From: Escherichia coli
GTDB lineage: Bacteria > Pseudomonadota > Gammaproteobacteria > Enterobacterales > Enterobacteriaceae
Strand: one strand, 5' to 3'
NCBI RefSeq assembly: GCF_003334355.1
Contig: NZ_QOWP01000007.1
Length of the DNA: 64,000 bases
Shown in pieces: positions 38,433-38,676 of this stretch. Numbering within the stretch: position 1 is the first letter of the stretch; each line of letters opens with the position of its first letter. A program made the translations under genes and the position numbers. The notes below the pieces were generated by a model, which searched no databases, was not told the origin of the DNA, and worked only from the letters and a program-made list of their open reading frames with translations.

Positions 38433-38461
38433 TTGCCACCTTCCCACTCTGCCGCTAATAT
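38433..38461 (+). promoter_or_regulatory. Sigma70-type promoter for valV-valW with GC-rich discriminator
   Basis: TTGCCA -35, 17-bp spacer, TAATAT -10, then TCGTCCCC discriminator about 25 bp upstream of mature tRNA 5' end. Confidence 0.6.
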
Positions 38462-38487
38462 TCGTCCCCGTTGTCACCTACAACGTT

Positions 38488-38564
38488 GCGTTCATAGCTC
38501 AGTTGGTTAGAGCACCACCTTGACATGGTGGGGGTCGTTGGTTCGAGTCCAATTGAACGCACCA
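38488..38564 (+). tRNA. valV: tRNA-Val (anticodon GAC)
   Basis: 77-nt cloverleaf read directly: GCGTTCATAGCTCAGTTGG...anticodon loop TTGACAT...GGTTCGAGTCC...CACCA. Confidence 0.95.
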
Positions 38565-38568
38565 TCCT

Positions 38569-38645
38569 GCGTCCGTAGCTCAGTTGGTTAGAGCACCACC
38601 TTGACATGGTGGGGGTCGGTGGTTCGAGTCCACTCGGACGCACCA
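38569..38645 (+). tRNA. valW: tRNA-Val (anticodon GAC), second tandem copy
   Basis: Near-identical 77-nt copy 4 bp downstream of valV; differs in acceptor/T stem. Confidence 0.95.
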
Positions 38646-38676
38646 GATTTTCTTAATCTGGTCTTTTCCTTTTTCC
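38643..38676 (+). terminator. Putative terminator after valW
   Basis: CCAGATT/AATCTGG stem followed by TCTTTTCCTTTTTCC. Confidence 0.55.

Follow-up and report, generated by a model that had tools for sequence, protein, structure and literature searches.

Two tRNA-Val genes lie in tandem behind a predicted promoter in a 64,000-nt stretch of Escherichia coli DNA (contig NZ_QOWP01000007.1 of assembly GCF_003334355.1; the whole stretch is referred to here as the window), and the locus raises the question of what drives, controls and ends their transcription. The feature is the known E. coli valV-valW operon, ordinary rather than new, which has been experimentally characterised in K-12 (Mohanty & Kushner 2007, PMC2190699; Agrawal et al. 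2014; Mohanty et al. 2020); for its processing, the papers PMC2190699, PMC4176162 and PMC7049720 are used. Taken as a whole, the explanation set out below, in which this operon is transcribed, processed, regulated and terminated in the manner proposed, is very likely to be correct. The 801-nt stretch around both tRNAs is present in every complete E. coli genome (5,426/5,426), and several E. coli chromosomes, including that of ATCC 8739, match it at 100% identity. In the matching genomes, the annotated order is ydhQ (minus strand), the two tRNA-Val genes, and ydhR. RefSeq names the genes of MG1655 valV (b1665, 1746435-1746511) and valW (b1666, 1746516-1746592), and a window position equals the MG1655 position minus 1,707,947. 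Compared with MG1655 1745800-1747200, the window contains 10 mismatches in 1,401 nt, with zero between the -35 hexamer and the end of valW.

In the entire window, ARAGORN calls two tRNA genes and no more; both are tRNA-Val with the anticodon GAC at position 35, and both score far above the gathering score of the Rfam tRNA model (29 bits). The two genes differ at six positions, which, in a cloverleaf placement read from the sequence, correspond to three compensatory pair swaps within the acceptor and T stems: 5-69 from U-A to C-G, 7-67 from A-U to G-C, and 51-65 from U-A to G-C. Since these differences are base-pair-preserving double substitutions, both valV and valW are intact genes with the cloverleaf kept. 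Northern blots and aminoacylation assays have been published for valV and valW, and Term-seq places an RNA 3' end with a very high score at the valV CCA (MG1655 1746511; Adams et al. 2021). The original prediction of two 77-nt tRNA-Val(GAC) genes 4 bp apart is thereby borne out by both ARAGORN and the Rfam model, and its coordinates and sequence strings are all correct.

The promoter scan recovers TTGCCA-N17-TAATAT, with 9 of 12 consensus matches. In the surrounding 2 kb, promoter-like sites are not enriched (2 found against 2.2 expected from shuffles); because neither promoter nor terminator matches are enriched over shuffled sequence, consensus scan matches are not taken as evidence of function. 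The promoter is raised above chance by its position 26 nt before the tRNA gene, its near-invariance across Enterobacterales, and published primer extension. In the primer extension, the starts are two C residues located 18/19 nt upstream of mature valV, longer products are absent, and the -10 and -35 elements are described as 4/6 and 5/6 matches, respectively (Mohanty & Kushner 2007, PMC2190699). TAATAT and TTGCCA give exactly these hexamer counts. Near the reported start distance, the only consecutive C residues are C38468 and C38469, situated 7 and 8 nt after the -10 hexamer; by strict counting they lie 20/19 nt upstream of mature valV, and the start numbering in PMC2190699 is probably offset by one. 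The sigma-70 promoter initiates at these two residues, generating a transcript composed of a 19-20-nt leader, two isoacceptor copies of tRNA-Val(GAC) separated by 4 nt, and a short trailer. Further upstream, the 10-mer CAGAAAATTA (38412-38421, plus strand) is identical to the opening 10 nt of the upstream (UP) element of rrnB P1, located 3 bp closer to the -35 hexamer. The coordinates of all features are collected in Table 1.

Table 1. valV-valW operon features within the window.
Feature	Position	Strand	Basis or detail
A/T-tract element CAGAAAATTACGTTTT, possible UP-element-like site	38412-38427	+	A-tract -53..-50, T-tract -44..-41
-35 hexamer TTGCCA, 5/6 consensus	38433-38438	+	promoter scan
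Promoter spacer, 17 nt, last 6 nt TGCCGC	38439-38455	+	promoter scan
-10 hexamer TAATAT, 4/6 consensus	38456-38461	+	promoter scan
G/C-rich discriminator TCGTCCCC, spans starts C38468/C38469	38462-38469	+	sequence and published primer extension
5' leader hairpin CGUUGU-CACCU-ACAACG, begins at +2 of the primary transcript	38469-38485	+	folding and covariation
valV, tRNA-Val(GAC), 77 nt, encoded CCA	38488-38564	+	ARAGORN, Rfam (70.1 bits), RefSeq
Intergenic spacer TCCT, 4 nt	38565-38568	+	read from sequence
valW, tRNA-Val(GAC), 77 nt, encoded CCA	38569-38645	+	ARAGORN, Rfam (69.6 bits), RefSeq
Trailer hairpin ACCAGATT-TTCTT-AATCTGGT, then CTTTTCCTTTTTCC	38642-38662	+	terminator scan, folding
Pyrimidine-rich, G-poor trailer (T-rich, then C/T-rich), rut-like candidate for Rho loading	38663-38720	+	composition

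The near-invariance of the promoter is seen in tandem Val(GAC) arrays from other species, which were chosen with a pattern covering the tRNA tandem junction only, without conditioning on the promoter, and with one genome per species. The pattern search returned at least 120 stretches; all cross-species counts given here are among the matches listed, of which 112 arrays had 100 nt or more of sequence upstream. The majority belong to Enterobacterales, such as Citrobacter, Enterobacter, Salmonella, Klebsiella, Serratia, Pantoea, Erwinia, Tatumella, Sodalis, and Arsenophonus. The hexamer TAATAT is found in 108 of the 112 arrays, and the full pattern TTGYMH-N17-TAATAT-KCKWYYC in 107. Across the 107 distinct upstream sequences, the mean column identity reaches 0.93 in the -35 hexamer and 0.97 in the discriminator; within the spacer, the first 11 nt average 0.46 and the last 6 nt average 0.86, and the A-tract columns upstream of the -35 hexamer are 80-90% identical. 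Because the first 11 nt of the spacer vary, the conservation of the flanking promoter elements is selective and not mere low divergence. Four exceptions (Aeromonas, Ferrimonas, and two Rheinheimera-type contigs) carry other hexamers, and in three of the four the discriminator is clearly G/C-rich. The promoter TTGCCA-N17-TAATAT, as first proposed, is thus upheld by the promoter scan, the cross-species conservation, and the mapped starts.

The listed arrays also differ in their organisation. Two tRNA copies are found in 75 arrays, three in 39, and five in 3, and the inter-tRNA spacers measure 2-77 nt, most often 4 nt (53 spacers). In addition, an enterobacterial-type array occurs on a 1.6-kb contig binned as a Lachnospiraceae metagenome-assembled genome (L040, 1510-1580), and another in an assembly labelled Martelella alba (L110), in which the leader resembles that of Sodalis; both records are probably mis-binned or mislabelled.

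For a comparison of promoter class, the regions upstream of further MG1655 stable-RNA operons were examined with the same hexamer scan, which recovered ten promoters (Table 2).

Table 2. Other MG1655 stable-RNA promoters recovered by the hexamer scan.
Promoter	Hexamers and spacer	Discriminator
rrnB P1	TTGTCA-N16-TATAAT	GCGCCACC
rrnB P2	TTGACT-N16-TATTAT	GCACACCC
tyrT	TTTACA-N16-TATGAT	GCGCCCCG
leuQPV	TTGACG-N16-TAGAAT	GCGCCTCC
thrU	TTGCAT-N17-TAGAAT	GCGCGCTA
argX	TAGACA-N17-TATTAT	CCACCCCC
metT	TTGACG-N17-CATAAT	GCGCCCCG
valU	TTGACT-N16-TATAAT	GCGACTCC
alaW	TTGACA-N17-TATGAT	GCCGCCCG
lysT	TTGCGC-N16-TAATAT	ATGCCGCC

The original prediction described the valV discriminator as GC-rich and the promoter as stringent-type. 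Six of the 8 nt after the -10 hexamer of valV are G or C, and the ten other promoters, with 6-8 of 8, fall in the same class. Furthermore, the second base after the -10 hexamer of valV is C (38463; TAATAT-T-C-G), like that of rrnB P1 (TATAAT-G-C-G). A C instead of a G two positions past the -10 hexamer is reportedly non-optimal and makes a weak contact with sigma region 1.2, and G/C-rich discriminators are said to be associated with negative control by guanosine tetraphosphate (ppGpp) and DksA. Promoters of the rRNA/tRNA class form short-lived open complexes, and their transcription is inhibited by ppGpp/DksA. The discriminator TCGTCCC(C), together with the second-position C, would place the valV promoter in this architectural class. 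Judged by these sequence features, the label 'stringent-type' holds as a description of architecture; by analogy, from this architecture and general knowledge of the class, we infer control of the valV promoter by ppGpp and growth rate.

Several points weigh against such control. The valV discriminator opens with TCGT, where the classic examples have GCGC. The spacer of valV has the optimal 17 nt, in contrast to the sub-optimal 16 nt of rrnB P1, tyrT, leuQPV, and valU, although the shorter spacer is a contributory and not a universal property of the class, and metT, argX, alaW, and thrU also have 17 nt. Moreover, no ppGpp, DksA or growth-rate measurement for the valV promoter was found in literature searches that gave nothing usable. 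These points, the missing GCGC motif and 16-nt spacer of rrn P1 and the lack of direct regulation data in the searches, would also suit a strong, constitutive valV promoter, in which the discriminator is conserved for start-site choice or for the leader RNA with no specific control by ppGpp/DksA; since the conserved block extends into the leader hairpin, the RNA could account for part of the conservation. We nevertheless regard constitutive transcription as quite improbable: all ten of the other stable-RNA promoters share the 6-8/8 G/C discriminator, this feature is reportedly linked to negative ppGpp/DksA control, and across Enterobacterales the discriminator keeps 97% identity next to a spacer that is mostly variable.

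Downstream of the start sites, the leader hairpin folds at -5.1 kcal/mol (z = -3.2) and is also contained in the minimum free energy (MFE) structure of the whole transcript. When 64 distinct leaders are aligned unguided with MAFFT, 90.2% of the cells are paired, compared with 23-61% in slid-partner controls. Three of the six pairs change on both sides, for example in GTTGTC/GACAAC, GCTGTC/GACAGC, GTTGC/GCAAC, and GCCGTC/GACGGC. RNAalifold returns no consensus structure for the same 64 leaders, and the hairpin is visible only by counting pairs on the named structure; the main change, one U-A to C-G switch, largely tracks phylogeny. For both reasons, the covariation evidence for the leader hairpin, as read from the alignment, is moderate. 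In Pluralibacter and Trabulsiella the hairpin is absent, and the leader comprises only ~7 nt.

At the other end of the transcript, a hairpin followed by a T-rich tract had been noted, with a terminator implied. The terminator scan calls this element with an 8-bp stem, a 5-nt loop, and the tail CTTTTCCTTT. In context, the hairpin folds at -12.1 kcal/mol (z = -4.0), and 0 of 200 shuffles fold as well. Its 5' arm is formed by the ACCA 3' end of valW itself, and the MFE structure predicted for the full transcript shows the hairpin stacked on the acceptor stem. A hairpin of 7 bp or more that is anchored on ACCA is found in 26 of 113 distinct trailers, compared with 0.19 +/- 0.42 in shuffles, and the 26 trailers derive from Escherichia, Citrobacter, Enterobacter, Kluyvera, Lelliottia, Pseudescherichia, Trabulsiella and relatives. 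Fourteen different stem sequences occur among them; therefore, it is the pairing that is kept. The U tract varies even where the hairpin is kept, with 1-6 T in the 9 nt after the stem, and Enterobacter reads GCAAATCCT. The tail after the stem is CUUUUCCUU (6 U in 9 nt) in this strain and CUUCUCCUU in MG1655, where the T at 38666 is replaced by C to give CTTCTCC. A 61-nt trailer stretch of this strain is matched at 99% or more in only 98 of 5,195 E. coli genomes, a count that does not show the differing base, and this suggests that the interrupted T tract of MG1655 is the common form, probably carried by most E. coli.

Whether the hairpin (38642-38662) and the T-rich tract together make a functional Rho-independent terminator, ending the transcript ~24-27 nt after the CCA, depends on how these properties are weighed. 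The call by the terminator scan, the folding significantly better than shuffles, and the compensatory changes that maintain the hairpin in related genera speak for such a terminator, as do the strong canonical terminators with which Aeromonas, Ferrimonas, Zobellella, and Vibrio end the same tRNA array and the published terminator-containing precursor, which is just ~35 nt longer than the trimmed form. However, the stem contains only three G-C pairs, is closed at the base by A-U pairs, and gives -8.9 kcal/mol when folded by itself; conservation of the hairpin does not extend to the U tract, and that of MG1655 is interrupted by C, this strain's stretch being the rarely matched one. Terminator-like sites in the 2 kb are also not enriched over shuffles (3 found against 2.1 expected). 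The Term-seq tables of Adams et al. (2021) contain no curated 3' end between the valV CCA and MG1655 1746701 (1746511-1746701), although rapid exonucleolytic trimming could hide one, and the authors who characterised the operon saw no recognisable intrinsic terminator. An intrinsic terminator is, on balance, unlikely. The hairpin is real as sequence and conserved, and the U tract is not conserved; the implied terminator is corrected to the extent that the element, with its weak stem and unconserved U tract, is probably not a classical intrinsic terminator.

Termination before ydhR is probably mainly Rho-dependent, on the G-poor, pyrimidine-rich trailer; the composition of this trailer, the unconserved U tract that is interrupted in MG1655, and the reported occurrence of hairpins lacking U tracts ahead of rut-like sequence at Rho-dependent 3' ends speak for it. 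Between 38646 and 38720, G amounts to 9% (the lowest 0.6% of the 75-nt segments of the window), C to 23%, and pyrimidines to 71% (the top 0.2% of such segments), and 98% of the 113 distinct trailers contain more C than G; this is the composition that would be expected of a Rho loading site. In the published work on valV-valW, the terminator is called Rho-dependent and ydhR is not cotranscribed; the trailer is removed by PNPase and RNase II, with a ~35-nt-longer precursor visible only when both are inactive, and it is stated to have no recognisable intrinsic terminator and no secondary structure. On such a transcript, the weak ACCA-pairing hairpin would be a site of pausing, a stop for exonucleases or, at most, an intrinsic terminator that leaks.

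Against mainly Rho-dependent termination stand several points. The Rho-dependent label in the literature is a prediction from absent structure and not a bicyclomycin or rho-mutant test, and its premise of an unstructured trailer is partly wrong, in that a hairpin exists. Supplementary file 2 of Adams et al. (2021) lists no Rho-termination region at MG1655 1746400-1746999, covering the valVW trailer and most of ydhR, by a method that uses 800-nt windows, which are here dominated by tRNA reads. With 6 T in the 9 nt after the hairpin in this strain, some intrinsic termination is possible. Furthermore, the precursor that contains the terminator exceeds the trimmed form by only ~35 nt, a short distance for Rho action. 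The contradiction with the literature, in which the trailer is called unstructured, makes the Rho-dependent label worth a simple experiment. Separately, supplementary files 1 and 3 of Adams et al. (2021) contain a weak Term-seq 3' end at MG1655 1746701 (window 38754, plus strand), which is the second base of the ydhR start codon and lies 109 nt past the valW CCA; it could be the end of valVW read-through or of a ydhR 5' fragment.

The dicistronic valV-valW transcript is separated at the 4-nt spacer by RNase P and not by RNase E (PMC2190699, PMC4176162). In the published scheme, RNase P splits the two tRNAs and makes their 5' ends without RNase E, and PNPase and RNase II trim the trailer back towards the encoded CCA. 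It is conceivable, and is offered here tentatively, that the leader and trailer hairpins, kept by compensatory changes across enterobacterial genera, are functional processing determinants. If so, the leader hairpin would protect the 5' end against RNase E, helping to explain the dependence on RNase P, and the trailer hairpin would determine in which order or how far 3' trimming proceeds, or keep the CCA from RNase P until trimmed. To our knowledge, no such processing role has been described for either hairpin of valV-valW.

On the opposite strand, the Rfam model RF02194 (HPnc0260, bacterial antisense RNA) matches 38607-38769 (minus strand) over its full length with 110.3 bits, above its gathering score of 59; the match is antisense to a segment that extends from the 3' half of valW through the trailer to the ydhR start. 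Taken at face value, the match would represent a real HPnc0260-family antisense RNA that starts within ydhR, crosses the trailer and reaches into valW (38769 to 38607), and matches at the same place in E. albertii (103.5 bits) and in Enterobacter, Citrobacter, Salmonella, Pseudescherichia, and Kluyvera (61-68 bits) agree with this. However, the 3' third of the model is the antisense of a tRNA T-arm and acceptor, where valV alone scores 36.6 bits, so that ~37 bits, about a third of the score, come from the antisense-tRNA part. The score also drops steeply with distance from E. coli, with no match in Serratia, Pantoea, and Aeromonas; this fall-off fits an Escherichia-like sequence that shaped the model and not a conserved structured RNA. 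Moreover, the promoter scan finds no minus-strand promoter-like site in 37500-39500, and RefSeq annotates no such RNA at the locus. The namesake HPnc0260 is a nickel-regulated Helicobacter transcript divergent from ureA; the likeness to it consists in the covariance model matching the minus strand above the gathering score, and the difference lies in its origin in the H. pylori ureA region, with neither a promoter nor a sign of RNA conservation seen here. A real antisense RNA is accordingly very improbable, and the match is probably an artefact of how the family model was built. Weak Rfam matches below the gathering score (Plastid-ycf2, YrlA, ceN61) overlap the tRNAs or look like chance.

The valV-valW operon serves as a model substrate for RNase P processing and has little importance as a discovery; the use of the present check is that a sequence-only reading of the tRNA genes and the promoter proved accurate. 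Compared with the stringent stable-RNA promoters rrnB P1, tyrT, leuQPV, and metT, the valV promoter has a G/C-rich discriminator, a second-position C, and near-consensus hexamers, with an A/T-rich upstream region and a site just upstream of a stable-RNA gene; with respect to rrnB P1, the shared upstream 10-mer is shifted by 3 bp in valV. The trailer, in turn, can be compared with the Rho-dependent 3' ends described by Dar & Sorek (2018; PMC6061677), which consist of a stem-loop that stops exonucleases and lacks a U tract, with C-over-G sequence downstream. The valW trailer likewise has a stem-loop without a conserved U tract, C over G, and trimming by PNPase/RNase II. However, the valW stem-loop holds the tRNA's own ACCA and must be removed to mature the tRNA, and the role of Rho here is a prediction. 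The closest counterpart is K-12 valV-valW itself (b1665-b1666; tRNA-Val2A/2B): the source strain here is not K-12 and has T at 38666 in place of the C of MG1655, and the two share the same neighbours ydhQ and ydhR, the same tRNA sequences, the same UCCU spacer, the same promoter hexamers, and the same leader.

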